This document shows positions 36,226 to 64,000 of a stretch of 64,000 nt of DNA, piece by piece. This DNA is from Escherichia coli (lineage in GTDB: Bacteria; Pseudomonadota; Gammaproteobacteria; Enterobacterales; Enterobacteriaceae): assembly GCF_965641715.1 (NCBI RefSeq), contig NZ_OZ282453.1; one strand, written 5' to 3'. A program made the position numbers and the translations under genes. How positions within the stretch are numbered: the first letter of the stretch is position 1; each line of letters begins with the position of its first letter. A model generated the notes under the pieces. That model was given only the letters and a program-made list of their open reading frames with translations, was not told the DNA's origin and made no database searches.

Positions 36226-37440
36226 ATGAAGATCGTAAAGGCTGAAGTTTTTGTTACCTGTCCGGGGCGTAATTTCGTCACATTAAAAATCACCACTGAG
36301 GACGGTATTACGGGCCTTGGGGATGCCACCCTCAATGGACGTGAGCTTTCCGTGGCCTCTTATTTGCAGGATCACCTTTGTCCGCAGCTTATTGGTCGCG
36401 ATGCGCACCGTATCGAAGATATCTGGCAGTTTTTCTATAAAGGTGCTTACTGGCGTCGCGGTCCGGTTACGATGTCGGCCATTTCAGCGGTTGATATGGC
36501 GCTGTGGGATATTAAAGCCAAAGCTGCCAACATGCCGCTTTACCAGTTACTCGGCGGCGCATCTCGTGAAGGGGTGATGGTTTATTGCCATACCACCGGT
36601 CACAGTATTGATGAAGCTCTGGATGATTATGCCCGTCATCAGGAGCTGGGATTCAAAGCCATCCGCGTGCAGTGCGGAATCCCTGGTATGAAAACCACCT
36701 ACGGCATGTCGAAAGGTAAAGGTCTGGCTTATGAACCCGCAACCAAAGGACAGTGGCCGGAAGAGCAGCTGTGGTCGACGGAGAAATACCTCGATTTCAT
36801 GCCGAAATTGTTTGACGCGGTACGTAACAAGTTTGGTTTTAATGAACATTTGCTGCATGACATGCACCATCGCTTAACGCCTATTGAAGCGGCGCGCTTT
36901 GGTAAAAGCATTGAAGATTATCGCATGTTCTGGATGGAAGACCCGACGCCTGCGGAAAACCAGGAATGCTTCCGTCTCATTCGCCAACATACCGTCACAC
37001 CCATCGCAGTGGGTGAAGTCTTCAACAGCATCTGGGACTGCAAACAACTGATTGAAGAGCAACTCATCGATTATATCCGCACCACGCTGACCCATGCAGG
37101 CGGAATTACCGGTATGCGCCGGATTGCCGATTTTGCTTCGCTGTATCAGGTACGTACTGGCTCACACGGTCCTTCCGATTTGTCACCAGTCTGCATGGCT
37201 GCAGCGCTGCACTTTGATCTGTGGGTCCCCAATTTCGGTGTCCAGGAATACATGGGTTATTCCGAACAAATGCTCGAAGTCTTCCCGCACAACTGGACTT
37301 TCGATAACGGCTATATGCATCCGGGAGACAAACCGGGTCTTGGTATCGAATTCGATGAAAAGCTGGCGGCGAAATATCCCTATGAACCTGCTTATCTACC
37401 AGTCGCACGTCTGGAAGATGGCACGCTGTGGAACTGGTAA
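36226..37440 (+). CDS. rspA: starvation-sensing protein RspA (enolase-superfamily mannonate dehydratase-like)
   Basis: ORF 36193..37440 trimmed to [27 protein letters not shown]... (404 aa). Confidence 0.92.
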
Positions 37441-37451
37441 GGAGTAAGATA

Positions 37452-38471
37452 ATGAAAAGCATATTAATTGAAAAACCGAATCAACTGGCGATTGTCGAAC
37501 GTGAAATACCCACCCCGTCAGCGGGTGAAGTACGAGTAAAAGTGAAACTTGCCGGAATTTGTGGTTCAGATAGCCATATTTATCGTGGGCATAATCCTTT
37601 TGCGAAATATCCGCGCGTCATTGGACATGAATTCTTTGGCGTCATTGATGCGGTGGGTGAAGGTGTGGAAAGCGCCAGAGTCGGTGAACGTGTTGCTGTC
37701 GATCCGGTGGACAGCTGTGGTCATTGCTATCCGTGCTCTATAGGTAAGCCGAACGTTTGTACGACACTCGCTGTATTAGGTGTGCACGCTGACGGTGGTT
37801 TCAGTGAATATGCTGTGGTTCCGGCAAAAAATGCGTGGAAAATTCCTGAAGCAGTGGCCGATCAATATGCGGTGATGATCGAACCTTTTACCATTGCGGC
37901 TAACGTAACCGGTCATGGTCAACCGACTGAAAATGATACCGTTCTGGTTTATGGTGCCGGTCCAATCGGCCTGACGATCGTTCAGGTATTAAAAGGCGTC
38001 TATAACGTTAAAAATGTGATTGTTGCCGATCGCATTGATGAACGACTGGAAAAAGCGAAAGAGAGCGGGGCTGACTGGGTGATTAATAACAGCCAGACAC
38101 CGCTTGGCGAGATTTTCGCTGAAAAAGGCATCAAGCCGACATTAATTATTGATGCGGCTTGTCATCCTTCTATCCTGAAAGAGGCCGTAACGCTGGCTTC
38201 TCCAGCGGCACGTATTGTATTGATGGGCTTCTCCAGTGAACCTTCTGAAGTGATTCAGCAAGGAATTACCGGAAAAGAACTCTCTATTTTCTCTTCACGC
38301 TTAAATGCAAATAAATTTCCGGTCGTTATCGACTGGTTAAGTAAAGGGTTAATTAAACCAGAAAAATTAATTACCCATACGTTTGATTTCCAGCATGTTG
38401 CTGATGCCATTAGTTTATTTGAACAGGATCAAAAACATTGCTGCAAAGTCTTACTCACTTTTTCTGAATAA
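37452..38471 (+). CDS. rspB: starvation-sensing zinc-dependent alcohol dehydrogenase RspB
   Basis: ORF 37428..38471 trimmed to MKSILIEKPNQLAIVEREIP... (339 aa); Zn-ADH motifs GHEFFG and GAGPIG. Confidence 0.92.
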   Translation: MKSILIEKPNQLAIVEREIPTPSAGEVRVKVKLAGICGSDSHIYRGHNPFAKYPRVIGHEFFGVIDAVGEGVESARVGERVAVDPVDSCGHCYPCSIGKPNVCTTLAVLGVHADGGFSEYAVVPAKNAWKIPEAVADQYAVMIEPFTIAANVTGHGQPTENDTVLVYGAGPIGLTIVQVLKGVYNVKNVIVADRIDERLEKAKESGADWVINNSQTPLGEIFAEKGIKPTLIIDAACHPSILKEAVTLASPAARIVLMGFSSEPSEVIQQGITGKELSIFSSRLNANKFPVVIDWLSKGLIKPEKLITHTFDFQHVADAISLFEQDQKHCCKVLLTFSE

Positions 38472-38528: not shown

Positions 38529-38657
38529 ATGACAATAGAAAAACACGAAAGAAGCACTAAGGATTTGGTGAAAGCAGCAGTATCGGGATGGCTGGGCACT
38601 GCGCTTGAATTTATGGATTTCAAGAGTCATACGTGTCAACTATTTGATAAATATTAA
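38529..38657 (+). pseudogene. ydfJ: 5' remnant of MFS (MHS-family) transporter gene ydfJ, truncated by prophage insertion
   Basis: ATG with RBS followed by MTIEKHERSTKDLVKAAVSGWLGTALEFMDF..., a typical MHS-transporter N-terminus (E-x-x-DF box), then a stop within about 40 codons just before the integrase 3' end. K-12 ydfJ is known to be split by Qin. Confidence 0.6.
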
Positions 38658-38658
38658 A

Positions 38659-39954
38659 TTAATTTTTCATTGCTTCGTTATGGGGCATGGTTGGGGCAAA
38701 CTCGCTTAACTGTGTATTTAACAAAGCTACCTGTGCATTATTGTTTTCAGACATCCATTTTCCGTATACCTGAAATACCATTTGCGCATCTGCATGGCCC
38801 ATCTGGTTTGCTATAAATGCCGGGTTAGCACCAGCTGTCAGCGACCAGCAGGCATAAGTATGTCTCGACTGATATGATTTTCGATGGCGGAGTCCGGCAC
38901 GTTTTATCGCTGCGTCCCACATCTGCCTTATTGAGTCAACGGTAAAATGGTCACCATAATTTTTTACTCTCGCTGACACTTCAGGTTGAAAAACAAAGGT
39001 GCATTTTTGTTTTTCTGTTCTGCCATACTCTCTCAGGTGAACATCAATGATATGCTCTTTGCTCAGTCTCGTTAATGTCATCTGACTCCGGAGAGCGTCG
39101 ATTGCTGGCTTAATAAGATGAATGACCCGATTGGTTCCCGCCTGTGTTTTTGGTACCGTGAAACGGTCTTTTGCTAAATTTCTCCTGATCATCATTGTTC
39201 CATTTTTCAGATCTATGTCCTCCCATCCAAGTGCACACAGCTCACCAGGGCGAATGCCAGTATAAACAGAAACACACCATAAATTTTTTGCTTGCTGATT
39301 TCTGCACGCATCGATAAGACGGATAAATTCCTCCCGCGAAAGAGGATCCGGAATGGTTCTTGATTCCTTTAATGGCGAGATCCCCTTAAACGGATTATCT
39401 GCCAGGTAACCGTTATCAACACCAAACTGGAACACGGCGTTAAGATTTGTCATGTAATTATTTACAGTTACAGCCGATCTCCCTGGTTGTGTAACAATAT
39501 AGTTACTTTTGGGGATCTGGTATCCAGTCAGTAGCTCTTTACGAACCTCCAGTAATTTTTCTTTATTAATCGATGAGGCAAGATTTTTTTCACCGATTAT
39601 GCTCAGGATATTTTTGATGACGGCACGGTATGTGTTGAGTGATGTTTTGGCGACTTCAGTTTCTTTCAGTGCCAGAAATTTTTCAGCCAGTTCTTTTATG
39701 GTTAAATCTTGTCGGGCCTCACCAAATTTTTCCAGATTGCGTGAGGAGGGAAACTGTTTTGCATAGTCGAAAACACCAGTTTTTATTGCGTAACAAACAG
39801 AGGCGCGTAGTTCACCTGCAACGCGCCTGTTTTTTGCTGTGTCAGGAACCCCCAGATTTTCCCTGACTCTTACGCCTTTATAAACAAACCAGATACGTAA
39901 TTTCCCTCCATGGTTTTCCACGCCTGTCGGATATTTCATTTCAACTTCTCTCAT
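38659..39954 (-). CDS. intQ: prophage tyrosine integrase (P4-type), apparently intact
   Basis: 431-aa ORF with C-terminal tyrosine-recombinase catalytic region (R...HxxR...Y, e.g. SRHTYACWS and YGKW); first gene inside the prophage. Start may be Met6 (39939). Confidence 0.9.
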   Translation of the reverse strand: MREVEMKYPTGVENHGGKLRIWFVYKGVRVRENLGVPDTAKNRRVAGELRASVCYAIKTGVFDYAKQFPSSRNLEKFGEARQDLTIKELAEKFLALKETEVAKTSLNTYRAVIKNILSIIGEKNLASSINKEKLLEVRKELLTGYQIPKSNYIVTQPGRSAVTVNNYMTNLNAVFQFGVDNGYLADNPFKGISPLKESRTIPDPLSREEFIRLIDACRNQQAKNLWCVSVYTGIRPGELCALGWEDIDLKNGTMMIRRNLAKDRFTVPKTQAGTNRVIHLIKPAIDALRSQMTLTRLSKEHIIDVHLREYGRTEKQKCTFVFQPEVSARVKNYGDHFTVDSIRQMWDAAIKRAGLRHRKSYQSRHTYACWSLTAGANPAFIANQMGHADAQMVFQVYGKWMSENNNAQVALLNTQLSEFAPTMPHNEAMKN

Positions 39955-39973
39955 TAGTTAGTGTGGCTTTTAG

Positions 39974-40225
39974 TCAAGTAAGATGACGTCTTGGTCTCGC
40001 TGATGCCTGGCGCTCAATCCAGCGATCAATTTCTTCCAGGTTGTAAAAGCATGGACTGTTATCCCATGGCATACCGTCATGAGCGACATGCTTATATTCC
40101 CTTCCTTCCATAAACGATTTTTCCCGGGCCTTTTTTAACGTACCTTTTTTTATTCCTTTCAGCGCAATTAACTGCTCTTCGGATACCCATTTGCCGGGAG
40201 AGACAATCATGATTACTTCGCTCAT
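39974..40225 (-). CDS. excisionase-like small DNA-binding protein
   Basis: 83-aa basic ORF immediately upstream of int in the same orientation; classic Xis position. Confidence 0.65.
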   Translation of the reverse strand: MSEVIMIVSPGKWVSEEQLIALKGIKKGTLKKAREKSFMEGREYKHVAHDGMPWDNSPCFYNLEEIDRWIERQASARPRRHLT

Positions 40226-40297
40226 CGATTTCTTTATCTCTTACATCAGACGAGCGCCGGTTGCAGAATACCAGTCACAACCGGCGACAGTTGAACA

Positions 40298-42769
40298 TTA
40301 AGAATCAGCCTGACTCGGGATCAGTTTTTGCCAGATAACTGAAACGTATTTTGCCTGGTAACGGGCGTCATCAAGTGCATTATGGCGCTCACCTTCGAAT
40401 GGAATAGCCGTTCTGGCATCGAAATCTATGGCTTTCCCCAGCTCAACGATTGTGCGTACATCGCGATCGTTGTAGTAACGCCACGGGCAGGGGATCCCCT
40501 GCCGTTCGTATGAACGGCGCAAAATCGTGTTGTCGAAGTTGGCTCCATTTCCCCAAACCTGAACAAATAATTCACCGGAGTTTTCGTCGATAAATTCCCG
40601 CAATTGTAACAGTGCATCATCTAACGGGATTTCATCGGTCATAATGGCAGATTGTGCTTCGCGTGATTGCTTAAGCCACCATTTAATGGTGTCCCGATCA
40701 ATGACTCCGCCAGCAGTTTCCAGATCGATAGTCTTACTAAATTCCGGTCCTATATCTCCGGTTTGCGGATCGAAAAATATTGCACCTATTGAGATGATCG
40801 GTGCATCAGGATTTTTTCCCATGGTTTCAAGGTCGATCATTAGATGGTCACACGTCCTGCTGGTGGATGTGATTTCGTGATGACCGTTCACCTTAATTGA
40901 GTGATCTGCCGTCTCGCCAGTTTCATTATCGCTATTGTGATGCTGATTGCCGCCAGTGTTCTCCTTGTGTGGATGTTCAGCGCCTTCCATTTCCTCCGGA
41001 TCATCTTCCTGAACTTCAACCTGATACTCTTCATCGAATGTTTCTTGGTATGTTGCGTCGCCCATCACCGCGCCACAATCAGGGCAGTTGCCGCCGCCAG
41101 TCTGACCGCAGGCGGTGCAGACTTTTTCCACTTCCTGTTGCGCCACTGGTTCAGGCTGTTTCGTTTCTGGCTCGTTTTGTAACGCATTTGGGCTGTTTTG
41201 TTCCGCTTTTTGGTAGTTCCGTTCCGATTCATGCTGGTTCTGGTTCACAGAATCGCGGGTCTGGATCCCCTTAACCCATTTCGGATCATTCGGGTCACTA
41301 ATCCCTTCAACAAATTCACCATGTGATGCAGCAAGCAACTTATCGGCGTCAGGCTGGCTGATATTGGCTGCCTGCATAATTTTGTTTACTTCGTCAGCGG
41401 TAACTTTTATCGGCTCTGGTTGTTCTGAATCTTCAGCGGTATCTACATTTTGCGGTAAGCCCGTGTATGTGCCATTTTTTCGGGCAAAATATTCTTCTTT
41501 TGTGATTTCAGTGGCGCCAGCAGCCAGTGCCTTATCCAGACCAGAAAGTTTGTTTGCGCGACCGTATTTTTCTCCGTCCTTATCTGCGAAGAGGAAATAG
41601 AACGGCCCCTCACGCTCTACAGATGGTTCAGCTTCCGGCGCGGTTTCATTTTTTGGGATATCAGATACCTCAGTTTCCACTGCATCAGTTTGTGTTTCTG
41701 ATGACTGGAGAACATCAACAGTGCCCAGGTCTGTTTCTTCATTCTCAAACACGCCCTTTGTCGTCAGGTATTCGCAGATATATTTGTTCAGTGCTACGGG
41801 ATCTTTGTGAATGTCGATCGGACGCTCACGGACAAGGCCAAAAATAGTTTGGCGGTCGTAGCGAAGGGCATCAGGCTGTTTGCGCATTGATGCCGAGATA
41901 CGCTTCCAGTCTTCGCGGTCGTTGTCGATAACTTCTTTTTTTGCCCAGCGATGGATGCTGCCGTCAATGTTTCCGGCATCCACATCACCAGGCCAGAGAG
42001 CGTAGGCCAGTTCGTCATCCAGTGTTTTCCATGTCTGCTTGTATTCGCGATGAATGGCAGCAATGACCGGGCTGATTTTTCCTGTTGAATTTTCAGTGTA
42101 CTGTTGATTGGCTCTGGCGCGGGCGAGATCAACAACAGACGTGTATTTTCCGGTTTCCTTGCGTTCACCTTCGCGACGTTTTTTCCAGATGCGCATCTCT
42201 GCCTGAATTTCGGGCCATTTAGCACCAGGAATACATTTATGCTTAACCCACCCAATGGCGTGCAACTTAAGCTCCGGATACATGGCGTTAACTTCTGGCA
42301 TTTTCATCAACGCTTCAACGATATGTCCGTCGAATGTTGCCATGTCTTCCTGCAACAATTCCTGTGCGCTAATAACCATATCAACGGTGATGTTTTCACA
42401 TGTGTCGAACTTAACCATGACAGCGTTCTGTACTTCAGGGGCCAGCTTGTCAAAAGTGACGTTCATCGGATCGGATTCAGTCTCAACCGGGACAAAAGAA
42501 GCTGACTCCTCATCCCAGCGGTTTTCCTGCATATATTCAGCATCCCATGAATCGAGGGCAGGGCGGGGTATGCCAGGTTTATCCTCGCAGACAATAAATT
42601 TATAAGCGCAGTCCTGAGCAGCCGGATAATGTTCCAGGAACTGCCAGTGAAATTTTGCTCGAGCACGGCGTTCGTCGCCAGCTTCAATGGCTGTGGCTAC
42701 AGCCACAGCGCCTTCTTCCCTTGTTGCCAGTTCGTCAGGAATAGCGGCGCAAATAAAGACTTTACTCAT
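40298..42769 (-). CDS. large prophage early-left protein with C-terminal DEDDh (DnaQ-like) 3'-5' exonuclease domain; full-length counterpart of K-12 ydfE-region pseudogene
   Basis: 823-aa ORF; C-terminal roughly 180 aa carry exonuclease motifs (MIDLETMG, WGNGANFD, HNALDDA); central acidic region and CxxC...CxxC zinc-ribbon-like motif (CTACG...CPDCG); occupies the exo/recombination slot between xis and the dicB operon. Confidence 0.7.
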   Translation of the reverse strand: MSKVFICAAIPDELATREEGAVAVATAIEAGDERRARAKFHWQFLEHYPAAQDCAYKFIVCEDKPGIPRPALDSWDAEYMQENRWDEESASFVPVETESDPMNVTFDKLAPEVQNAVMVKFDTCENITVDMVISAQELLQEDMATFDGHIVEALMKMPEVNAMYPELKLHAIGWVKHKCIPGAKWPEIQAEMRIWKKRREGERKETGKYTSVVDLARARANQQYTENSTGKISPVIAAIHREYKQTWKTLDDELAYALWPGDVDAGNIDGSIHRWAKKEVIDNDREDWKRISASMRKQPDALRYDRQTIFGLVRERPIDIHKDPVALNKYICEYLTTKGVFENEETDLGTVDVLQSSETQTDAVETEVSDIPKNETAPEAEPSVEREGPFYFLFADKDGEKYGRANKLSGLDKALAAGATEITKEEYFARKNGTYTGLPQNVDTAEDSEQPEPIKVTADEVNKIMQAANISQPDADKLLAASHGEFVEGISDPNDPKWVKGIQTRDSVNQNQHESERNYQKAEQNSPNALQNEPETKQPEPVAQQEVEKVCTACGQTGGGNCPDCGAVMGDATYQETFDEEYQVEVQEDDPEEMEGAEHPHKENTGGNQHHNSDNETGETADHSIKVNGHHEITSTSRTCDHLMIDLETMGKNPDAPIISIGAIFFDPQTGDIGPEFSKTIDLETAGGVIDRDTIKWWLKQSREAQSAIMTDEIPLDDALLQLREFIDENSGELFVQVWGNGANFDNTILRRSYERQGIPCPWRYYNDRDVRTIVELGKAIDFDARTAIPFEGERHNALDDARYQAKYVSVIWQKLIPSQADS

Positions 42770-42862
42770 TTTGTTTTAACCTCATGACAGATTTAAGGAT
42801 GAACAAATCCCTGCCATTGCTGGCATATAAGAATGAAACCGGATATTTATTACGGAACTGTT

Positions 42863-43054
42863 TTAAAGACCTGCCGGGATTTCGATATTATCCTGGTGAA
42901 TAACTTTATCGACCGGGTAACAGTTACCGGGAATTTTCTGTTCGGTTGCTGCAGTCATACACTCCTGCATTGTCCTGTGAACACTGTCTGCAATATCAAC
43001 TGGCTCTCCGGAAACAAGAAAAGCTGTCAGAACAAGCGCAAATGCTGAATTCAT
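42863..43054 (-). CDS. ydfD: small secreted/membrane protein YdfD-like (dicB operon)
   Basis: ORF trimmed to MNSAFALVLTAFLVSGEPVD... (63 aa); start ATG overlaps the dicB stop as ATGA. Confidence 0.75.
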   Translation of the reverse strand: MNSAFALVLTAFLVSGEPVDIADSVHRTMQECMTAATEQKIPGNCYPVDKVIHQDNIEIPAGL

Positions 43055-43239
43055 TGTGTACATCCTTTTGGCATCAGACGTAAACGAGCCAGCATTGAAA
43101 CAATGCATATTTTATTTAATAGCTCCCGTTCTTGTTTTCTCTTGTTAATGGCATCTTCAGTAAATACAGGGTTACTGATAGTGACACCAATTTCAAAACA
43201 ACCTTCAGACGTATTAACGTTTGGTAATAACGTTTTCAT
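43051..43239 (-). CDS. dicB: cell division inhibitor DicB
   Basis: Internal Met of ORF 43051..43344 gives 62 aa, MKTLLPNVNTSEGCFEIGVTISNPVFTEDAINKRKQERELLNKICIVSMLARLRLMPKG..., matching recalled DicB. Confidence 0.88.
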   Translation of the reverse strand: MKTLLPNVNTSEGCFEIGVTISNPVFTEDAINKRKQERELLNKICIVSMLARLRLMPKGCTQ

Positions 43240-43413
43240 TATCGCGTCCTCAACAATGAATTTTGTGATGCAGTGCCTGGTGCCTCCAGGTGACGTTAAC
43301 CAGTTAACAATTAACGCCGGATACAGAGAATCCACCCATAACACTGTTTTTGGTTTTAACTGTTCCGCGTGCGCTTAGCCGCATTCACCGCATCACAAAA
43401 TTCACTTTAAAAA

Positions 43414-43466
43414 CGGCGGCAGAGCAGTCACGGAGTAAAACTGATACCGCCAAACGTCACCAGAAA
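43414..43466 (-). ncRNA. dicF: DicF small regulatory RNA (ftsZ-targeting)
   Basis: Reverse complement reads tttctggtgacgtttggcggtatcagttttactccgtgactgctctgccgcc, essentially identical to recalled 53-nt DicF, followed by a T-run; lies just upstream of dicB. Confidence 0.85.
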
Positions 43467-43910
43467 ATTGATAACAGAGGGCGTTGCAGCGGGGTTGTCA
43501 CTTAAGCGTATGGTCAACCTGACAACTCGGTGTCCTCAACGGGGAAGGAATAACCCCGCCATACTTACCGCCGCGCCATTTCGCGGGTTGCCACAACCGG
43601 AAGCGCACGGTCGAATTAAATTTAACGACACCGTACAGTGAGACGAACTTCGCCGTGCGCTTTCGTGTTGTGTGCCTGCTTTTAACCACGTCAGGCGAGG
43701 TGGTATCCTTCTTATCCAGAATAACCAAGAAGGAAATCTATATGACTAAAGAAGAATTTGTCTCTTATATTTTTGATAAAACGGTTGAAATGTATGCCGC
43801 TACTTACGGGTCCTGTAATCCTCTGAATAAACCAGAGGGGAAAGATGATTTCGACAAAATTTACCGCTTCTTGGAGGACCGCTATATCAAAAGGTTAGAG
43901 GACGCAGGGA

Positions 43911-44288
43911 TCAAATCCCCAGTGAAGTCACCATTGTCCTGAGAACTTGCAGGACGTCATGATCGTAACTTCCATCCAAACCGCGACGGCAAATTGCTTC
44001 TCGTATTACCGGAAGCAGTTCGCTGGAAATCTCGGTGCATATTTCACCTGATAATACGCCTGGCTCAAGTGAGAATATTGGTGAACTTACGGTCTTGGTC
44101 TCGACAGTTTCAGAGTCAGTGCCAACATTATAAAGCTCAACGAAAGCGGTCTTGATTTTCCGGGCCAGATCTTTTGCTGGCTCGCTTGCAATATCTTTCC
44201 CGATTTCTCGCAGCACAGAATGCAATGTATGAGCTGCTGTTTTCTGTACATCAGACGGTAAATCTTTAAATTCCATCGTCAGCCTCAT
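43911..44288 (-). CDS. hypothetical protein in the ydfB/ydfC position of the dicB operon
   Basis: 125-aa ORF whose start overlaps the ydfA stop (ATGA); K-12 has two short genes (ydfB, ydfC) here. Confidence 0.5.
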   Translation of the reverse strand: MRLTMEFKDLPSDVQKTAAHTLHSVLREIGKDIASEPAKDLARKIKTAFVELYNVGTDSETVETKTVSSPIFSLEPGVLSGEICTEISSELLPVIREAICRRGLDGSYDHDVLQVLRTMVTSLGI

Positions 44289-44440
44289 CAGTCAGTGTTT
44301 CTGGCTAACCAGCAACGCGCGCCAGATTCGGTTTTAAACGTTTTGCTTTTGGTATATGTCATCGCGGTGAACGTACCGTCCTGGTTGGGGAACACGCCAC
44401 ATACCAGAGATTCGCTGTTGCCAAGATCGATAGTATCCAT
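44288..44440 (-). CDS. ydfA: DUF1391 small protein YdfA-like
   Basis: Internal Met of ORF 44288..44596 gives 50 aa, MDTIDLGNSESLVCGVFPNQDGTFTAMTYTKSKTFKTESGARCWLARNTD; first gene of the early-left operon. Confidence 0.7.
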   Translation of the reverse strand: MDTIDLGNSESLVCGVFPNQDGTFTAMTYTKSKTFKTESGARCWLARNTD

Positions 44441-44632
44441 GCTGACCTCATTTCCCCTTAACGCCGGGGTAGCGGAACTGTTTGCTGAGAACACCGTGCG
44501 GTGTCTTGATGGAAGTAATTTAGTTTTCTCATTATTTTTCGTCAAGGTTTTTTTATGAGAAAACTCAAGTATTGGCGCAAGATAAAGCCAATACATTGAA
44601 ATGTAAGGCTTTAAAATTTTGTGAAGGGATGA

Positions 44633-45040
44633 TTATTGATGCTTGTTGCGTTTGCGAGCCTCTAATAGCTCGGTGAACAGGCGATTAAAATTCTCAACGC
44701 GGGCGCGGAGTTCGCTGAGTTGTGCTTGTTGCTCTGATTTAGGAAGTGCGCGATACAAACGCAGCATCTCTAACTCATCTTCCGATAAGTCTAAGGCACT
44801 ATCGAGTGAAACAGGGGGAGCTGGTGTTTTGTCCTCGTCGCCAAACAGTATCCAGGTTGGTGAACATTGCAATACCTCGGCGAGGCGATGCAAATTTTGC
44901 CCGCGCGGGGCTGTATGGTCACTTTCCCATAATGAAATTGATGAGCCAGATACGCCAGCAGCTTTGCTTAAACCGTTTTGACTTAAGCCTACCTGCTTAC
45001 GTCTTTCTCTAATGCGTTGACCTAAAGTTTTCTCGTTCAT
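44633..45040 (-). CDS. dicA: prophage repressor, DicA-like (XRE-family HTH)
   Basis: ORF trimmed to MNEKTLGQRIRERRK... (135 aa); HTH QNGLSKAAGVSGSSISLWE; C-terminal half ...LQCSPTWILFGDEDK... matches recalled DicA closely. Confidence 0.85.
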   Translation of the reverse strand: MNEKTLGQRIRERRKQVGLSQNGLSKAAGVSGSSISLWESDHTAPRGQNLHRLAEVLQCSPTWILFGDEDKTPAPPVSLDSALDLSEDELEMLRLYRALPKSEQQAQLSELRARVENFNRLFTELLEARKRNKHQ

Positions 45041-45117
45041 ATTTAGATATCTTAATAACCCTTGACTTGAGATTCCTTGAGTGATTAGCATTGAGAAAAC
45101 TCAATATTGGAGGTGCG
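45041..45117. promoter_or_regulatory. divergent immunity promoter/operator region between dicA-like and dicC-like genes
   Basis: 77-bp intergenic region with perfect palindrome attgag-aaaa-ctcaat (about 45090..45105) and repeated cttgag elements, SD ggagg for the rightward gene. Confidence 0.5.
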
Positions 45118-45345
45118 ATGTTTAAATCAGACGTAATTAATTTTTACGGTACGAAAGCCAAAGTAGCGAAAGCTGCTGGCGTTGACCCATCTGCTGTTTC
45201 TCAATGGCAAGAGCTGGTTCCTGAAGGTCGCGCGATGCGTCTACAGGAGGCATCTGGCGGCGAGCTTCTGTATGATCCCAAGGTTTATGACGAATATCGT
45301 AAGACGAAGCGGGCGGGGCGGTTGAACAATGAAAATCACTCCTGA
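45118..45345 (+). CDS. dicC: Cro-like regulator, DicC-like
   Basis: 75-aa ORF from ATG 45118 (six-frame ORF began at an upstream TTG) with strong SD ggagg; divergent from the repressor. Confidence 0.8.
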   Translation: MFKSDVINFYGTKAKVAKAAGVDPSAVSQWQELVPEGRAMRLQEASGGELLYDPKVYDEYRKTKRAGRLNNENHS

Positions 45346-45850
45346 ACAGGCTCGTGAGGCTCTGGATGCCTGGATATGTCGACCAGGAATGACACAGGAG
45401 CAGGCGACGATATTAATCACTGAAGCATTCTGGGCTTTGAAAGAGCGCCCGAACATCGATGTTCAGCGTGTCACAGATGAAGGTGGCGCGGTTGATCAGC
45501 GAGCGCTTGGCGTTAATCGAGTGAAGATATTCGAACGCTGGAAGGCTATCGACACTAGGGATAAGCGTGAAAAGTTCACGGCGCTAGTGCCTGCAATTAT
45601 GGAGGCTATCCGGATTAATGATTTCAGGTTGTATCGTGAAATTAGTGACGGAAAAAGCATCACGTACATGATCGCCGGGTTAAACAAAGAATATGGCGAT
45701 GTGGTGGAGTCCGGACTGCTTTTTGCTGATCCTGCCGTAGTGGATCGTGAAACTGACGAACTTATAGAAAAAGCAATTGCTTTCAAACTTGCGTATCGAC
45801 AGCAATACCAACAAAAAGCTGGATGGAATTATGAGCCTTCTTTTTGCTGA
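45329..45850 (+). CDS. YdaT-like prophage early protein
   Basis: 173-aa ORF directly after the cro-like gene, the position YdaT occupies in Rac-type prophages; weak recalled similarity only. Confidence 0.55.
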   Translation: MKITPEQAREALDAWICRPGMTQEQATILITEAFWALKERPNIDVQRVTDEGGAVDQRALGVNRVKIFERWKAIDTRDKREKFTALVPAIMEAIRINDFRLYREISDGKSITYMIAGLNKEYGDVVESGLLFADPAVVDRETDELIEKAIAFKLAYRQQYQQKAGWNYEPSFC

Positions 45851-46796
45851 ACGCCCACTGGTTATAAACACACAGCTTGCGATGAAGATTGGCTTAAATG
45901 AAGCCATTGTGTTGCAGCAGTTGCATTACTGGTTGAGAGATACCAATTCCGGCATGGAATGTGATGGTGTTCGCTGGATTTACAACACAACGGAACAATG
46001 GCTGGAACAGTTCCCATTCTGGTCAGAGTCAACGTTAAAGCGCGCGTTTGCAAGTCTGAAAACGCTGGGGCTTTTGCGTTGTGAAAAGCTCAATAAATCA
46101 AAGCGCGATATGACCAATTTCTACACGATCAACTACGGGAGCGAGCTTTTAGATGGTGGCAAATTGAGCGAATCCATCGGTTTAAAATGCGCCGCTCCAT
46201 CAGGTCAAAATGACACGATGGAAGAGGTCAAAATGAAACGCTCCATTGGTTCAAAACGACCCAATGTCATCGGGTCAAAATGGCCTGATGATCTTACAGA
46301 GAATACAACAGAGATTACTACAGAGAATAAAAACACTTTTCGTCCGGAAGCTTCGCAACCGGACCCGCAGACCGCTGAACAGGATTTTTTAACCCGGAAC
46401 CCCGACGCGGTTGTGTTTAGTGCGAAAAAACGCCAGTGGGGTAGCAGGGAGGATTTGGCGTGTGCGCAGTGGATTTGGGGGCGGATCGTGAACCTTTACG
46501 AACAGGCTGCCAGCGACGATGGAGAGATCATGCGACCAAAAGAGCCTAACTGGACAGCCTGGGCCAATGACGTGCGCACAATGCGGATGCTGGATGGCAG
46601 AAGCCACAGACAAATTTGCGAAATGTTTGGTCGGGTACAGCGAGATCAATTCTGGGTAAAAAACATCATGAGCCCGTCAAAACTCCGCGAAAAATGGGAC
46701 GAACTGGTCATCCGCCTGGGACGTTCACCTGTACAGCGTTGTATGAATCATATTTCTGAACCGGATACAGAAATTCCGCCTGGTTTCAGAGGATAA
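45831..46796 (+). CDS. phage replication initiation protein (O-like / DNA-binding replication protein)
   Basis: ORF 45777..46796 trimmed to ATG at 45831 (MSLLFAERPLVINTQLAMKIGLNEAIVLQQLHYWL...), overlapping the upstream stop; N-terminal HTH-like segment; position after cro/ydaT. Confidence 0.6.
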   Translation: MSLLFAERPLVINTQLAMKIGLNEAIVLQQLHYWLRDTNSGMECDGVRWIYNTTEQWLEQFPFWSESTLKRAFASLKTLGLLRCEKLNKSKRDMTNFYTINYGSELLDGGKLSESIGLKCAAPSGQNDTMEEVKMKRSIGSKRPNVIGSKWPDDLTENTTEITTENKNTFRPEASQPDPQTAEQDFLTRNPDAVVFSAKKRQWGSREDLACAQWIWGRIVNLYEQAASDDGEIMRPKEPNWTAWANDVRTMRMLDGRSHRQICEMFGRVQRDQFWVKNIMSPSKLREKWDELVIRLGRSPVQRCMNHISEPDTEIPPGFRG

Positions 46797-46836
46797 GTTT
46801 TGATTTCAGGTCATGAGGTAATTTTAAGGGGGACTT

Positions 46837-47238
46837 GTGGCAAAAGTTTTTACACAAGAAGAGCGGGAAAAAATTAAAGGGCAGGTGGTGGAACTCGTGC
46901 GCCAGAGCGGTCGTGAGACGTTACGGCAACTGGAAGCTAAAACAGGTGCGACTAGATATCTGATGAGCGTTCTTGCCAGAGAGCTGGTAGCCAGTGGCGA
47001 TGTATACAACTCCGGCTACGGGTTATTCCCGTCTGAACAGGCGCGTAAGGACTGGCAAAACGCCCGCAAAAAACTATCGAGGGCAAAGGTGAAGAAAACA
47101 GCTGTGGTTGATCCGGACCTTATCTGGTCGTTACCTGATGGAGAAATACGTCGCTACGACAGTCGCCTAAACATAATCTGTCGCGAGTGCCGGATGAGTG
47201 AAGTTATGCAGCGCATACTGGCATTTTATCAGGGATAA
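46837..47238 (+). CDS. hypothetical protein, possible winged-helix DNA-binding protein
   Basis: 133-aa ORF with GTG start preceded by strong SD (taaggggg); segment TLRQLEAKTGATRYLMSVLARELVASGDVY resembles a wHTH. Confidence 0.5.
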   Translation: MAKVFTQEEREKIKGQVVELVRQSGRETLRQLEAKTGATRYLMSVLARELVASGDVYNSGYGLFPSEQARKDWQNARKKLSRAKVKKTAVVDPDLIWSLPDGEIRRYDSRLNIICRECRMSEVMQRILAFYQG

Positions 47239-47611
47239 TGTTAGGTATTTTAGACGTTACTAGATTAAAAAGCATTAGTTCAGGAGTGAATTGACATTCT
47301 CATTTTTCATGGCACAGGGTAGATCTGGCGTGGTTGTCCGCTTTGTGCCAAGAGCGGACGTTGGTATGCAAGAGCCCTCCAAAAGTTGATGGTTGGTTTG
47401 CAGGGGGGCTTAAAGAAACTGCACTTATCAAGTTGAAGTTCTGTATTCAGCGAAATCGTAGCACTCTGACGATAAGTAACTCCGGTACTCCGCTCTTCGA
47501 TGAAGAACCAGAGTAATCCCCCCGAAAAACCAGCGCATCAAAATTGGATCTTCAGCGGTAGCTTATCGGCTATCGGAAGTACAGGTGTGGATTCGTGGTG
47601 AATTGCTTTGA

Positions 47612-47646
47612 TAATAAACGATTAATACGGAAAAACGTATTAATCA
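47612..47646 (-). terminator. hairpin terminator downstream of the 449-aa orphan gene
   Basis: Perfect inverted repeat attaatacg-gaaaaa-cgtattaat about 30 nt past the stop, followed on the transcribed strand by a U-rich stretch. Confidence 0.5.
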
Positions 47647-55358: not shown

Positions 55359-55609
55359 CTCTTCAATTACTATATCTCATTCATAGCAAACTGACAGATT
55401 TGATGATGTTCTATATACGAAACCTGTGATGTCAAGTCTGAGCTAATACAAATAAACATAATATCAGAGAAATACATTTTATTAGCTCGCTACGGCGAGC
55501 TTTTTATATTGCATCGTCTCCAGCATATATATCAATTAAGGCTCTGATTGATGTGTCTGGAGGCCTACACATAATAACTATGCCATCCGTTCCGTGCGGA
55601 GGTGAGGCT

Positions 55610-55825
55610 ATGAAATCCATGGACAAAATTTCAACAGGTATTGCCTACGGCACCTCCGCAGGCAGTGTTGGCTACTGGTTTTTACAGCTGCTCGATAAAG
55701 TCACGCCCTCACAGTGGGCAGCAATAGGTGTGCTGGGTAGCCTGGTATTTGGCCTGCTGACGTACCTGACAAATCTTTATTTCAAGATTAAAGAAGACAG
55801 GCGTAAGGCTGCGAGAGGAGAGTAA
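55610..55825 (+). CDS. essQ: class II holin (EssD/EssQ-like) with dual-start motif
   Basis: Six-frame ORF 55553..55825 trimmed to [29 protein letters not shown]... (71 aa) after SD ggagg; two TM segments; Met-Lys-x-Met dual start. Confidence 0.85.
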
Positions 55826-55829
55826 TCCA

Positions 55830-56137
55830 ATGACTCAAGACTATGAACTGGTTGTGAAAGGAGTCCGTAATTTTGAGAATAAAGTTACGGTAACTGTAGC
55901 CTTACAGGACAAAGAACGCTTTGACGGTGAAATTTTTGGCCTGGATGTCGCCATGGACCGTGTTGAAGGAGCTGCGCTGGAGTTTTATGAGGCAGCAGCC
56001 AGAATGAGCGTCCGGCAAGTCTTCCTGGAAGTAGCAGAAAAATTGTCAGAAAAAGTTGAGTCTTATCTGCAGCATCAGTACTCCTTTAAGATTGAAAATC
56101 CTGCCAATAAGCACGAGCGTCCTCATCATAAATATCT

Positions 56138-56141
<4 letters not shown>
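55830..56141 (+). CDS. ydfR: DUF1327 prophage protein YdfR-like
   Basis: 103-aa ORF between holin and endolysin, the position and length of ydfR in Qin. Confidence 0.65.
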
Positions 56142-57165
<1,024 letters not shown>

Positions 57166-57528
57166 ATTAATATTAAATCGGATTATTTTTAGCGCTGAAT
57201 GTGAAATTTAAATAAAAAGGACTCTTCCATGAGTCAAAATCCTTGAAATCTTAAGGGTAAGATAAAAGGTCATTAGACAGAATGACACGTTTTATTAATA
57301 AATAAAGCTATTGTTTCATTCGTGTGTTTTTCTTTACAAAAGTAATCCTTGCTATGGTTGGTTAATCATGCGTTAATGGTGTTCTGGTTTGTTACAAAAT
57401 TATCTGAAGCAGTCATTGTTATAATTTTATTATTTGTACCTCTTGAGATTTCCTTGTTGGTTTTTCTCTCTGATATTTTTTTTCGGACCATTCTGCCCAA
57501 GGGCTAACTTCTTCAAAAGGTAATAATG

Positions 57529-57741
57529 ATGTCTAACAAAATGACTGGTTTAGTGAAATGGTTTAACCCTGAAAAAGGTTTTGGTTTCATCACGCCGAAA
57601 GATGGTAGCAAAGATGTGTTTGTGCATTTCTCAGCTATTCAGAGCAACGATTTCAAAACGTTAACTGAGAATCAGGAAGTCGAATTTGGTATTGAGAACG
57701 GACCTAAAGGCCCTGCAGCTGTTCATGTAGTGGCACTTTGA
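57529..57741 (+). CDS. cspI: cold-shock-domain protein CspI-like
   Basis: 70-aa [38 protein letters not shown]... with RNP1/RNP2 motifs; long AT-rich 5' UTR typical of csp genes. Confidence 0.9.
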
Positions 57742-57944
57742 GGTAGAAAATATTACAAACCATATTCACTTTAGATGCCCGTGTTGCCATGGTTCTCAGT
57801 ATAGAACATCATCTTTTGATGTTTCTGACAGAAATCCTTTCGGGGCAAAATGTATCTTTTGTAAATCAATGATGATTACATTTGATAATATTTCACAATA
57901 CTTAAATGTTAGCCATCTGTCGTTAGATTTAAGAAAGTGAAAAT

Positions 57945-57970
57945 GAAGGCTCCTTCGGGAGCTTTTTTGC
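57945..57970 (+). terminator. Rho-independent terminator downstream of cspI
   Basis: gctcc-ttcg-ggagc hairpin followed by ttttttgc. Confidence 0.5.
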
Positions 57971-57973
57971 TTA

Positions 57974-58243
57974 GTGTCTAGTCGATGGATACTCACATAT
58001 TACGGTAACATTATGAAAAAAATAATAGTTTTTTTTAACTCTGAACCAGCAATGGTAGTGCCAGTGATGACCGGAGTTAACACCATCATGCGTGAATATC
58101 CAAATGGCGAAACAACACACCTCACTGTAATGGCTGCAGGGTTTCCATCTCTGACCGGAGATCATAAAGTCATTTATGTAGCAGCGGATCGACATGTAAC
58201 TTCAGAAGAAATTCTGGAAGCAGCAATGAGACTCTTGAATTGA
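57974..58243 (+). CDS. hypothetical small protein
   Basis: 89-aa six-frame ORF; real start may be the internal MKKIIVFF...; no recognisable motif. Confidence 0.35.
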   Translation: MSSRWILTYYGNIMKKIIVFFNSEPAMVVPVMTGVNTIMREYPNGETTHLTVMAAGFPSLTGDHKVIYVAADRHVTSEEILEAAMRLLN

Positions 58244-58412
58244 TTTGATTCTAATGCATTGATAATAAATGATAATCATCTTTATCTGTTTGTGTGAAAT
58301 TTAGACCGTCGTATGTTGATTATTGCGATGTTTCATCTTATCTTTTATACGTTTGCTCCATATAATTGACACTACTGTGTACCAGGACAGTCATAACAGA
58401 CTAAAAGAGGAA

Positions 58413-58589
58413 ATGATGAACATTGAAGAGTTAAAAACAAAAACAGAAGCAGATATTTCTGAATATATAACAAAAAAAATCATTGAGCTTAAGAAAAAGA
58501 CTGGGAAAGAAGTTACCAGTATCCAGTTTACTGCACGGGAAAAAATGACTGGTCTTGAAAGCTATGATATCAAGATTGATTTAATCTAG
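58413..58589 (+). CDS. gnsB: GnsA/GnsB-family small protein
   Basis: Internal Met of ORF 58323..58589 after SD agagga gives MMNIEELKTKTEADISEYITKKIIELKKKTGKEVTSIQFTAREKMTGLESYDIKIDLI, matching recalled GnsB-type sequence. Confidence 0.72.
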   Translation: MMNIEELKTKTEADISEYITKKIIELKKKTGKEVTSIQFTAREKMTGLESYDIKIDLI

Positions 58590-58884
58590 CATGTTTATAG
58601 TATTAGCATCAATTTCTCATCAGATGCTATTCAACAATACAAATTACCCATAAACCTCGTTTTTACGGGGTTTTGTTATATTTAAACATTACCGAATAGA
58701 TATAAATCTCGATTGTCGATGGTATTGGTTGTGTGACAATACCTAGTCTTTCCGGTATGCCTGAAGAGAATACAAACGACAGATTATGTAAGGGAAACGC
58801 GCTGAAACTTTCACTCTTTCATGCTGAGTGATTTGACGTTATATTTTTAGCCGCAAGTGAAGAGCAAACGAATGGAGCGACAAA

Positions 58885-59091
58885 ATGCATAAAGATCAAT
58901 ACACTGATGCCCCCTCCCAGGAGCAGGTTCGTGTAAAAACTATGCTTAATAGCACCATTTCGATGGGTTACCCGGATGTTGTAATTGCATGTATAGAACA
59001 TCAAGTATCTCTGGAAGCATTCAGGGCAATTGAGGCCGCGTTAGTAAAGCACGATAAGAATACGAAGGATTATTCCCTGGTGGTTGACTGA
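58885..59091 (+). CDS. hypothetical small protein
   Basis: 68-aa ORF with ATG; no assignment. Confidence 0.4.
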
Positions 59092-59439
59092 TCACCATAA
59101 CTGCTAACCATTCTGACCATTTCACAAGTGACAGAGTCAATATCGTATTCTGTCACTGTAAGGCTAATACAGTACTGCAATTCAACTACAGCAATGCCTC
59201 GTATTTAGGTGAATTTACAATATCGTCCAGTTCGGATGCCGGCTGCATTTCTGAAGATAAGGCATTTCGGTTCGCGTATTTTCCCCTCATGCTCGTCAGT
59301 CCTGCGCGTAGTAAGAAACAGGACACTCACACTAATTTGTGTGGGCATGCTGTGATGTCCTTCTGAATTATCCCCATGCCATTATGTAACGCTCTGTTTC
59401 AGATGCTCGTCACGGTTGTCAGGCTGTCGGGTCCTCCCA

Positions 59440-59520
59440 GTGGGGGTCCCTGCCACGGGGCGGGAGCGTCGCGGAAAAAGGCTAGTTTTTGAAATTTTAT
59501 TCGTCATCACCACTACTTTA
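59440..59520. other. candidate cos site (cosN plus terminase-binding region), lambda-like
   Basis: ccACGGGGCGGGAGCGTCGCGG...TTTTTGAAATTTTATTCGTCATCAC parallels recalled lambda cosN/cosB (ACGGGGCGGCGACCTCGCGG...TTTATGAAAATTTTCCGG...TTCGTCATAAC), about 170 bp upstream of the small terminase gene. Confidence 0.55.
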
Positions 59521-59643
59521 ATTGATTGATATTACAGTGGTTTTATTTTTATGGTGTCGATTCTGATTGTTTTTTGTTCATCACTAACACCGTTTGCCTA
59601 AAGTTGTTCGCAAGATGCATGTTTAAAACATTCTGGAGCGGGT

Positions 59644-60138
59644 ATGGATCGAGAGTTAAAAAATCTGACGCTGAATATCAGTCAACTGGCGGCATTGTCA
59701 GGTGTACATCGCCAGACTGCTGCGGCAAGGCTGCAAAATCTACCCGTTGCAGGGGGGCATGAAAGCAACCTCAAGCTTTATCGGGTGGTTGATATTGTGT
59801 CGGCATTTCTGGCATTACCACCGCCGGTTGCAGAAGGCGAAATGGACGCGCATGAGCGCAAAGCCTGGTATCAGTCTGAACGTGAGCGTCTTAAGTTCGA
59901 ACAGGAAACGGCACAACTCATTCCGGCCAGTGATGTCAGACGGGAATTTGCCATCTGGGCAAAAGCGGTCGTGCAGGTGCTGGAGACATTACCGGATATT
60001 CTTGAACGTGACTGCGGTCTGCAGCCTGCCGCTGTGAGCCGTGTTCAGTCCATTATTGATGATCTGCGCGATCAGATAGCCCTGCGGGTGACTGAAGCAG
60101 GTGCGGATGATGAGGAGGAATTACAGCAGGAGGAGTAA
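59644..60138 (+). CDS. terminase small subunit (Nu1/NohA-like)
   Basis: 164-aa ORF with N-terminal HTH-like segment, immediately upstream of and overlapping the large terminase start. Confidence 0.8.
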   Translation: MDRELKNLTLNISQLAALSGVHRQTAAARLQNLPVAGGHESNLKLYRVVDIVSAFLALPPPVAEGEMDAHERKAWYQSERERLKFEQETAQLIPASDVRREFAIWAKAVVQVLETLPDILERDCGLQPAAVSRVQSIIDDLRDQIALRVTEAGADDEEELQQEE

Positions 60139-62240
60139 TGCTGAATCAGGAAACCGCAAAGGCAGCACGAACCGATTCAGGTTATATCCTTCGCGCACCG
60201 AGACGAATGCGGGTTGCTGATGCCGTTGCTCAGTATATGCGGGTGCCTATGGGGGCAGGGAACTCAGTCCCGTGGGATCCGCTGGTGGCACCGTATGTTA
60301 TTGAGCCTATGAACTGCCTGGCCTCGCGTGAATACGACGCAGTGATATTTGTTGGCCCGGCACGAACCGGCAAGACTATCGGCCTGATTGACGGCTGGGT
60401 GATTTACAACGTGATTTGCGATCCTGCTGATATGCTGATCATTCAGATGACGGAGGAAAAAGCCCGCGAACACTCCAAAAAACGACTCGCCAGAACGTTT
60501 CGCGTCAGCCCGGAAGTGGTCAGTCGCCTGAGTCCGAACAAAAATGACAACAACGTTTATGACAGAACATTCCTTGCTGGCAACTACCTGAAAATCGGCT
60601 GGCCGTCAGTCAATATCATGTCTTCATCAGATTATAAATGCGTGGCGCTGACGGATTATGACCGTTTTCCGGAAGATATTGATGGTGAGGGGGATGCCTT
60701 CTCTCTTGCCTCAAAACGTACCACCACATTTATGTCCAGTGGTATGACGCTGGTGGAGAGTTCCCCCGGCAGGGATGTGAAGGATGTGAAATGGCGACGG
60801 ACTTCACCGCATGAGGCTCCACCAACCACGGGGATCCTGTCGCTCTATAACCGTGGCGATCGCCGTCGCTGGTACTGGCCCTGTCCACACTGTGGTGAGT
60901 ATTTTCAGCCCTGCGGCGATGTGGTTGCTGGTTTCCGTGATATTGCCGATCCTGTGCTGGCAAGTGAGGCGGCTTATATTCAGTGTCCTTGCTGTTCAGG
61001 ACGGATTTTGCCTGAACAAAAACGCGAGCTGAACGGACGTGGGGTCTGGTTACGGGATGGTGAATCCATCAATGCAGATGGCAGTCGTTATGGTGATCCC
61101 CGGCGTTCACGTATTGCGTCATTCTGGATGGAGGGTCCGGCAGCTGCTTATCAGACACTCTCGCAACTCGTTTACAAACTGCTTACTGCAGAACAGGAAT
61201 ACGAGACAACCGGAAGTGAAGAGACACTCAAGACGGTTATCAATACCGACTGGGGATTACCTTATCTTCCCCGCGCCAGCATGGAGCAACGAAAAAGTGA
61301 ATTGCTTGAGCAGCGGGCAGAGCCAGTTCCTTCCCGCAGTGTGCCGGATGGCGTTAATTTCCTTGTGGCGACAGTGGATGTGCAGGCGGGACGTCATCGC
61401 CGTTTTGTGGTTCAGGTAACGGGCTATGGCAGCCGTGGCGAACGCTGGATTATTGATCGTTACAACATCACGCAGTCATTGCGCGGTGACAGCGACGGGG
61501 AGAGCCAGCGAATTGATCCGGCCAGCTATCCGGAAGACTGGGATGTCCTGCTGACGGATGTTTTTCATAAAAGCTGGCCGCTGGCCTCCGATCCTTCTCA
61601 ACAAATGCGACTGATGGCAATGGCGGTGGACTCCGGCGGTGAAGACGGGGTCACTGATAATGCCTATAAATTCTGGCGTCGTTGCCGTCGTGATGGCCTT
61701 GGTAAACGTATTTACCTGTTTAAGGGTGACAGCATCCGGCGCGCAAAACTGATCAGCCGTACATTCCCTGATAACACCGGACGAACGGGCCGCCGGGCGC
61801 AGGCCGCAGGTGATGTGCCGCTCTGGCTTCTTCAGACGGATGCCCTGAAAGACCGGGTGAATAACGCGTTATGGCGTGACTCGCCAGGTCCCGGCTATGT
61901 GCATTTCCCTGACTGGCTGGGGAGCTGGTTTTACGACGAACTGACGTATGAAGAGCGGAGCAGTGACGGGAAATGGAGTAAGCCGGGTCGCGGTGCCAAC
62001 GAAGCTTTTGACCTGATGGTGTATGCCGAGGCTCTGGTCATTCTGCATGGATACGAAAAGATCCGCTGGCCGGATGCACCGGAGTGGGCGAGCCGGGAAA
62101 CCTGGCTGGAGTGTGTCCCGGACAGTACCGAACCGTCACCCACACCGGAACCGGTATCCACGCCTGTTAAAAAACAAAAACGGAAGAAAACAGTAACTGA
62201 CGATGTTAACCCCTGGCTGACTTCCGGAGGATGGTTATGA
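60138..62240 (+). CDS. terminase large subunit (lambda gpA family)
   Basis: 700-aa ORF with Walker A-like VGPARTGKT and C-terminal nuclease/ATPase region; start overlaps the small-subunit stop. Confidence 0.9.
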   Translation: MLNQETAKAARTDSGYILRAPRRMRVADAVAQYMRVPMGAGNSVPWDPLVAPYVIEPMNCLASREYDAVIFVGPARTGKTIGLIDGWVIYNVICDPADMLIIQMTEEKAREHSKKRLARTFRVSPEVVSRLSPNKNDNNVYDRTFLAGNYLKIGWPSVNIMSSSDYKCVALTDYDRFPEDIDGEGDAFSLASKRTTTFMSSGMTLVESSPGRDVKDVKWRRTSPHEAPPTTGILSLYNRGDRRRWYWPCPHCGEYFQPCGDVVAGFRDIADPVLASEAAYIQCPCCSGRILPEQKRELNGRGVWLRDGESINADGSRYGDPRRSRIASFWMEGPAAAYQTLSQLVYKLLTAEQEYETTGSEETLKTVINTDWGLPYLPRASMEQRKSELLEQRAEPVPSRSVPDGVNFLVATVDVQAGRHRRFVVQVTGYGSRGERWIIDRYNITQSLRGDSDGESQRIDPASYPEDWDVLLTDVFHKSWPLASDPSQQMRLMAMAVDSGGEDGVTDNAYKFWRRCRRDGLGKRIYLFKGDSIRRAKLISRTFPDNTGRTGRRAQAAGDVPLWLLQTDALKDRVNNALWRDSPGPGYVHFPDWLGSWFYDELTYEERSSDGKWSKPGRGANEAFDLMVYAEALVILHGYEKIRWPDAPEWASRETWLECVPDSTEPSPTPEPVSTPVKKQKRKKTVTDDVNPWLTSGGWL

Positions 62241-62449
62241 ACCAGAATGATATCGAAGCCATGATTCAGCGTTATACGGAAGCTGAAATGGCGGTGCTGG
62301 ACGGAAAATCCGTCACCTTTAATGGTCAGCAGATGACCATGGAAAACTTATCTGAGATCCGGCAGGGACGGCAGGAGTGGGAGCGCCGCCTTGCGGCTCT
62401 GATTACACGACGACGGGGGCATCCCGGGTACCGGCTGGCGAGGTTCTGA
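62237..62449 (+). CDS. head-tail joining / head completion protein (gpW-like)
   Basis: About 70-aa ORF between terminase and portal, ending ...RRRGHPGYRLARF like lambda gpW; start at second ATG after SD ggagg. Confidence 0.7.
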   Translation: MNQNDIEAMIQRYTEAEMAVLDGKSVTFNGQQMTMENLSEIRQGRQEWERRLAALITRRRGHPGYRLARF

Positions 62450-63957: not shown

Positions 63958-64000
63958 TTCCTGGTTCAGGATGCAGGCAGGTCACCAGAGTGACGCGGAT

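Follow-up and report, generated by a model that had tools for sequence, protein, structure and literature searches.

The left attachment site of an apparently intact lambda-like prophage inside the Escherichia coli transporter gene ydfJ

The 64,000-nucleotide stretch of E. coli DNA analysed here (contig NZ_OZ282453.1 of assembly GCF_965641715.1; hereafter, the window) carries, inside the transporter gene ydfJ, the left end (attL) of a lambda-like prophage that appears to be intact. Judged from its sequence, the region represents the attL of a lambdoid prophage of the Qin/mEp460_ev081 type, and we consider it very probable that this prophage is competent for excision, and probably inducible, rather than a decayed remnant. 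In the map of open reading frames (ORFs), rspA and rspB are followed by a 42-aa ORF, a convergent 431-aa ORF, an 83-aa ORF, and an 823-aa ORF (Table 1).

Table 1. Coordinates of the features at the ydfJ junction and of the adjoining prophage (positions in the window)
Feature	Position	Strand	Basis or remark
rspA	36193-37440	+	ORF map
rspB, Zn-dependent oxidoreductase, chromosomal, directly upstream of ydfJ	37452..38471	+	ORF; 1020-nt rspB annotated in near-identical genomes and in K-12
Hybrid short ORF, 42 aa	38529..38657	+	ydfJ codons 1-31 plus 11 phage-derived codons (KSHTCQLFDKY and stop)
Bacterial part of ydfJ, start codon to end of core	38529..38621	+	Identical to uninterrupted alleles (alignments, blastn)
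att core of attL, TTATGGATTTC, 11 bp	38611..38621		Sole stretch common to attB, attL, attR, and attP
Left 25.4 kb of an mEp460_ev081-like (full-length Qin-type) lambdoid prophage	38611..64000		Continues past the end of the window
P' arm of the attachment site	38622..38700		Identical to attP of mEp460_ev081; overlaps the 3' end of int
int, tyrosine integrase, 426 aa, intact	38659..39939	-	ORF, Pfam, PHROGs, alignments
Two candidate arm-type Int-binding sites, TGGGGCA twice, 11-bp spacing	38681-38687, 38692-38698	+	Inferred assignment
xis, excisionase (DUF1233 / phrog_539), 83 aa, intact	39974..40225	-	ORF, Pfam, PHROGs
Exonuclease gene (ydfE homologue), 823 aa, full length, first early-left gene after xis	40298..42769	-	ORF, Pfam

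The initial annotation had taken the 42-aa ORF for the N-terminus of an MHS transporter, ydfJ, that runs into phage DNA and terminates close to the 3' end of the integrase gene, and comparison with intact alleles bore out both statements. Codons 1–31 of the ORF, which derive from ydfJ, read MTIEKHERSTKDLVKAAVSGWLGTALEFMDF; all 31 residues, and all 93 nucleotides, are identical to those of the 455-aa YdfJ of strain M217 (WP_000151243.1), whose uninterrupted gene is annotated as 'MHS family MFS transporter YdfJ'. In a blastn comparison of this intact gene with the window, nucleotides 1–96 of ydfJ corresponded to positions 38529–38624; this was the sole match, the remainder of ydfJ being absent from the window, and phage DNA begins at position 38622. 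Joining the left flank of the window, up to the 11-mer that it shares with K-12, to the K-12 ydfJ body gave an open frame of 455 codons, and this chimera was 100% identical to uninterrupted ydfJ alleles and contiguous in 2011 of 5426 complete E. coli genomes. The 42-aa ORF had no match in Pfam, for which it is too short to score, and its origin from ydfJ was therefore settled by the DNA comparison with intact alleles. Its stop codon (38655–38657) and that of int (38659–38661) are convergent, with a single base between them. The same hybrid ORF is present in K-12 as ynfP, which has 36 aa and ends in KSHAC, whereas the product in the window continues beyond KSHTC for another six residues. The difference in length (42 versus 36 aa) is due to one SNP, a C/T difference by which the CAA codon of the window is a TAA stop in ynfP.

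Alignment to an uninterrupted ydfJ allele, which had been proposed as the way to fix the exact junction and the core repeat, defined both. The core was delimited by a four-way alignment of attB (M217), attL (the window and strain Z1322HEC0002), attR (Z1322HEC0002 and K-12), and attP (the free phages mEp460_ev081 and Tritos). To the left of the core attL is the same as attB, and to the right it is identical to attP across the whole aligned arm, with attR as the reciprocal product; these precise relationships among the four sites hold in the relatives. The core lies within the interval of about 38.60–38.66 kb to which attL had originally been assigned. A search for a second copy of TTATGGATTTC within the window found none, the occurrence at 38611–38621 being the only one. 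This single copy, together with the blastn match confined to nucleotides 1–96 of ydfJ, agrees with the earlier placement of attR and the 3' part of ydfJ beyond the end of the window.

The core covers codons 28–31 of ydfJ. As the ATG of Met29 lies within it, the 'YdfJ' of K-12 is annotated as a protein of 427 aa that starts inside the core; the K-12 gene has lost 28 codons and its promoter (PMC6379469). Around the core, an imperfect extension of the form TGAAT(T)TATGGATTTC[C/A]AG can be drawn, which comprises 19 bp in attB (TGAATTTATGGATTTCCAG) and 18 bp in attP (TGAATTATGGATTTCAAG). A longer core was considered on this basis and rejected, strict identity being limited to 11 bp, whereas similarity beyond this is obtained only by allowing for a 1-nt indel on the left side and one C/A mismatch on the right side. 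The 19/18-bp extension fits, in an agreement of length only, the '18- or 19-bp att sequence' given for the ydfJ prophages of STEC in the legend to S7 Fig of Nakamura et al. 2021 (PMC8112680).

The integrase frame is open, with neither a stop nor a frameshift. An upstream in-frame ATG at position 39954 extends it to 431 aa, whereas in RefSeq and in the phage records int begins with the second ATG, at 39939, which gives 426 aa. The 426-aa protein aligns end to end and without gaps with annotated integrases of the same length. It is 100% identical to WP_000876974.1, annotated in close relatives as a site-specific integrase, and shares 99.3% identity with the Ints of four sequenced phages (mEp460_ev081, Tritos, HannyBb, and PhiR42_1). 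Pfam assigns the catalytic domain to PF00589 (Phage_integrase; E = 2.3e-18; 67 bits against a cutoff of 27.1) and the N-terminal region to PF12167 (Arm-DNA-bind_2; residues 9–72 of the 431-aa ORF; E = 5.7e-24), with sub-threshold matches for the core-binding (SAM-like) domain to PF14659 (20.7 bits; cutoff, 22.6) and PF13102 (20.8 bits; cutoff, 22.3). In PHROGs, the protein belongs to phrog_1, integrase (E = 1.7e-76). Alignment to the Int of Tn1549 (6emy) located the catalytic residues R230, K264, R359, and H382 and the nucleophile Y392 (426-aa numbering), and placed a tyrosine (Tyr356, in SYQSRHT) at the His-II position. The possibility that this substitution of the second catalytic histidine marks a dead integrase was rejected; the tyrosine is invariant across the Int subfamily, including the Ints of mEp460_ev081, the Stx phage VT1-Sakai, and the Stx2d-converting phage Stx2_112808, and is hence a trait of the family and not a lesion. 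Three residues differ from the Int of mEp460_ev081 (I229V, H300Y, and Q310H), and these are polymorphisms; Ile229 is also present in Stx-phage Ints including that of VT1-Sakai.

Directly upstream of int, at a distance of 34 bp from its start, lies xis. The predicted excisionase matches PF06806 with an E-value of 1.6e-31 over positions 1–69 of the 70 in the profile, and is 100% identical to Xis of mEp460_ev081. The description of both genes as full length was thus sustained, Int by its gap-free alignment over 426 aa and Xis by its identity to the phage protein, and the residue-for-residue match of Int to full-length annotated integrases leaves no room for the frameshifts that the initial annotation had named as grounds for doubt.

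Repeats near attP were surveyed with a view to the arm-type sites of Int. Several families (D3–D5 and I1–I3) are short two-copy matches, and only the tandem pairs of TGGGRCA stood out on genome-wide counting. This heptamer is depleted in the 45.9-kb phage genome (5 copies against about 14 expected), and yet four of the five copies, all in the same orientation, are grouped around the core in two tandem pairs of 11-bp spacing, the one at 137 and 126 bp before it and the other at 60 and 71 bp beyond it; the two pairs lie at 24624–24641 and 24831–24848 of the phage sequence. In an integrated relative, one pair is found at attL and the other at attR. The prophage part of the window contains only the two copies listed in Table 1, and this pair (38681–38698) sits inside the last codons of int. 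We propose the TGGGRCA tandem pairs as candidate arm-type sites of Int.

In the mechanism that these elements suggest, the phage tyrosine integrase, with its N-terminal arm-binding domain, would recombine attP with the TTATGGATTTC core in ydfJ. On integration, attL retains the ydfJ promoter together with codons 1–31, to which 11 phage codons are joined, and the transporter body is displaced to attR, which would lie beyond the window at a distance of about 45 kb. With its 5' part split from the transporter body, ydfJ would accordingly be inactive as long as the prophage is present, and the action of Int and Xis on attL and attR would restore the gene. At the far end, the expected sequence would be ...CACCTGTGAA-TTATGGATTTC-CAGTTATATTCGC..., followed by ydfJ codons 32–455. 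The competence for excision is deduced from the full-length int and xis, the identity of the P' arm to that of the free phage, and the retention of all genes expected within the window. That excision is still possible is therefore plausible, and the near-identity to an isolated viable phage strengthens the case, although an intact sequence is no proof of activity. For another prophage at the same locus, attP has been amplified by PCR from strain O26:H11 11368, according to the legend to S7 Fig of PMC8112680, from which it follows that this prophage excises.

Of an expected length of about 45.6 kb, 25.4 kb falls within the window; attR and the P arm, as well as the head and tail genes that come after portal, do not. 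From positions 38622 to 59577, the match to mEp460_ev081 is a single collinear piece (20,956 bp; 98.7% identity), and the rest of the window passes through cos and reaches terS, terL, and the portal gene. Every one of the 33 mEp460_ev081 genes that this 25.4 kb should contain was found, in the same order as in the phage and at full length, with no stop or gap. This part of the prophage comprises int-xis-exo-ydfD-dicB-DicF, immunity and replication genes, PD-T7-1, hokD/sok, rem, ydfU-rusA-Q, tRNAs, lysis genes, csp genes, and terS-terL-portal. The gene set of Qin and mEp460_ev081 is accordingly found here (dicB-ydfD-DicF, dicA/dicC-like immunity genes, hokD/sok, rem, ydfU, Q, essD-ydfR-rrrQ-rzpQ, cspI, and gnsB). 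The 823-aa protein next to xis is a Rv2179c-like 3'-5' exonuclease by Pfam. At the protein level, the genes are mostly 99–100% identical to those of mEp460_ev081, whereas exo, ydfD, and dicB reach only 89–92%. These three form a patch on the minus strand (40298–43335) that adjoins int-xis and has genes of 99–100% identity on both sides, and the pattern marks it as an apparent recombinational mosaic patch.

Several further elements were observed in the same part of the prophage. An ORF of 449 aa (47673–49022, minus strand) had no match in Pfam and matches over its full length the PADLOC model of PD-T7-1 (E = 4e-157), a single-gene anti-phage defence system; like a moron, the gene lies in the opposite orientation, with the replication module on one side and hokD/sok on the other, and it occurs in mEp460_ev081 at 99.6% identity and, annotated as a 'hypothetical protein', in RefSeq relatives. 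TolA C-terminal domains (PF06519) are encoded by two adjacent ORFs on the plus strand, at 54384–54812 (E = 2e-23) and 54963–55358 (E = 1e-14), which are situated between the lysis genes and the region of the Q antiterminator and tRNAs and share only about 28% identity. Proteins of this kind might serve as decoys against Tol-dependent phages or colicins. Downstream of Q are two tRNA genes on the plus strand (53134–53209 and 53310–53386), one with the anticodon CAT, assigned to Met by ARAGORN and to tRNA-Ile in RefSeq relatives, and the other a tRNA-Arg(TCT). The Rfam matches above the gathering score inside the prophage were the DicF sRNA (43414–43465, minus strand; 72.5 bits), the sok antitoxin RNA adjoining hokD (49597–49771, plus strand; 115 bits), the STnc100 sRNA (54083–54273, plus strand), and a cspA-type thermoregulator leader upstream of cspI (57371–57787, plus strand).

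In comparison with K-12, the junction occupies the same chromosomal site, with the same core and rspB-ynfP flank, and is nearly identical to the intQ side of Qin. The order in K-12 is rspA-rspB-ynfP-intQ (pseudogene)-IS2E-ydfE (pseudogene)...Qin...ydfJ-ydfI, and dicB, ydfD, DicF, hokD, rem, ydfU, lysis genes, and csp genes are shared with the window. In contrast, Qin of K-12 is 20.5 kb long, has an N-terminally truncated intQ beside IS2E, a ydfE pseudogene, and no annotated xis, and is missing most morphogenesis genes, whereas the window has full-length int, xis, exo, terminase, and portal genes. Specifically, K-12 intQ aligns from about residue 41, and thus lacks about 40 N-terminal residues, which make up most of the arm-binding domain; together with its flag as a pseudogene, this supports the earlier statement that the K-12 integrase is a pseudogene in a decayed remnant. 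Also among the closest known systems is mEp460_ev081 (LR597641.1), a functional temperate phage from infant faeces that carries dicB, dicF, dicAC, and rem (PMC10448788; PMC10910852) and is in effect a live Qin. Apart from being integrated, the copy in the window departs from it in the exo-ydfD-dicB patch and in the three Int residues described above, with the DNA identity, the 33 genes, and the attP sequence to the right of the core being shared. The prophages of STEC termed PPydfJ (Nakamura et al. 2021; PMC8112680) are likewise lambda-like and integrated in ydfJ; they are often clustered, with T3SS effector loci and secondary attB sites. Phage lambda itself resembles the system in having a heterobivalent tyrosine recombinase with arm-binding and catalytic domains, an adjacent xis, and a short core flanked by arms, of which the P' arm lies against int. 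It differs in the Int subfamily (PF12167 arm domain and tyrosine at His-II in the window), in the type of Xis (DUF1233 in the window), and in the core; moreover, attB in the present case is intragenic, its use inactivating the target gene, and the arm sites are predicted only.

The implied contrast with K-12 holds for the integrase, which is truncated there and intact here, but the unusualness of the feature was overstated. Of 5426 complete E. coli genomes, 2351 (~43%) carry the int-xis junction, and ydfJ is uninterrupted in 2011 (~37%); the junction was counted by coverage, not by reading frame, at a minimum of 80% of a 2-kb query, which a K-12-type truncation cannot reach. The feature is an ordinary one, and the ydfJ site, the att sequence, the decay of Qin in K-12, and a viable Qin-like phage have all been published.

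Despite its intact int and xis, the prophage could be grounded (cryptic) by defects beyond the window, such as loss or mutation of attR or the P arm, disruption of head or tail genes, or an IS insertion, such that precise excision fails or no particles are formed. Many prophages at the ydfJ site are degraded or rearranged, Qin of K-12 being an example; their sizes range from 11 to 97 kb with frequent intQ mutations (PMC6379469), and IS-inactivated integrases have been described in strain PV15-279 (PMC8112680). We nevertheless regard grounding as unlikely, while allowing it a real chance, for the visible part is fully intact and 98.7–100% identical to a viable phage, and the closest complete genomes (99.7%) carry a full-length prophage of 45.6 kb with ydfJ' at attR. 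In the closest of these, the prophage at ydfJ has full head and tail genes together with pinQ and ydfK, and attR carries the ydfJ 3' part. The chromosomal flank (14000–38620; ynfE/F ... rspAB) reached a best identity of 99.3% among the 5,426 complete E. coli genomes, against 99.7% for the prophage, and the host lineage apparently has no representative among them. With a best flank identity of only 99.3%, the far end of the prophage can be deduced from relatives only, and not with certainty.

It is also conceivable, but improbable, that this attL is the leftmost junction of a tandem prophage cluster, or the product of an inversion at ydfJ, in which case its partner would belong to another prophage. 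STEC strains with two to four prophages clustered at ydfJ are documented, as are ompW–ydfJ inversions (PMC8112680), and prophages of up to 97 kb have been reported at this locus (PMC6379469). The six closest complete genomes, however, each show one contiguous match, and the one that was examined has a single prophage of 45.6 kb; furthermore, neither effector-gene loci nor the secondary attB features of the STEC clusters were found in the visible 25.4 kb.

The gene ydfJ lies between rspAB and ydfI, which we take to form an acid-sugar catabolic cluster of the L-gulonate type around it. On this background, one may speculate that the prophage acts as a reversible switch of the 'active lysogeny' kind, in which regulated excision by Int and Xis without lysis would restore ydfJ under certain conditions. 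The hybrid 42-aa YnfP-like peptide, expressed from the ydfJ promoter convergently into the 3' end of int and the P' arm sites, might then couple host metabolism to int expression or to the occupancy of attL, with the TGGGRCA pairs as previously undescribed arm sites. We give this scenario very little credence. Finally, the notion that the short ORF is not derived from ydfJ, or that int conceals a frameshift, is refuted for practical purposes by the identity of 31/31 codons and 93/93 nucleotides to the intact gene, seen in both the chimera and blastn comparisons, and by the gap-free alignment of Int.

Taken as the attL of an excision-competent prophage, the junction has little significance beyond its correct annotation; it bounds a probably active prophage that would inactivate ydfJ. 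The exact 11-bp core and the intact int and xis make simple PCR assays of excision possible, and the copy in the window provides a clean, full-length reference for the decay of Qin in K-12. Of interest for the phenotype of the host is the cargo that the prophage carries, comprising the DicB/DicF division inhibitors, hokD/sok, the PD-T7-1 anti-phage defence gene, and the TolA-domain proteins.
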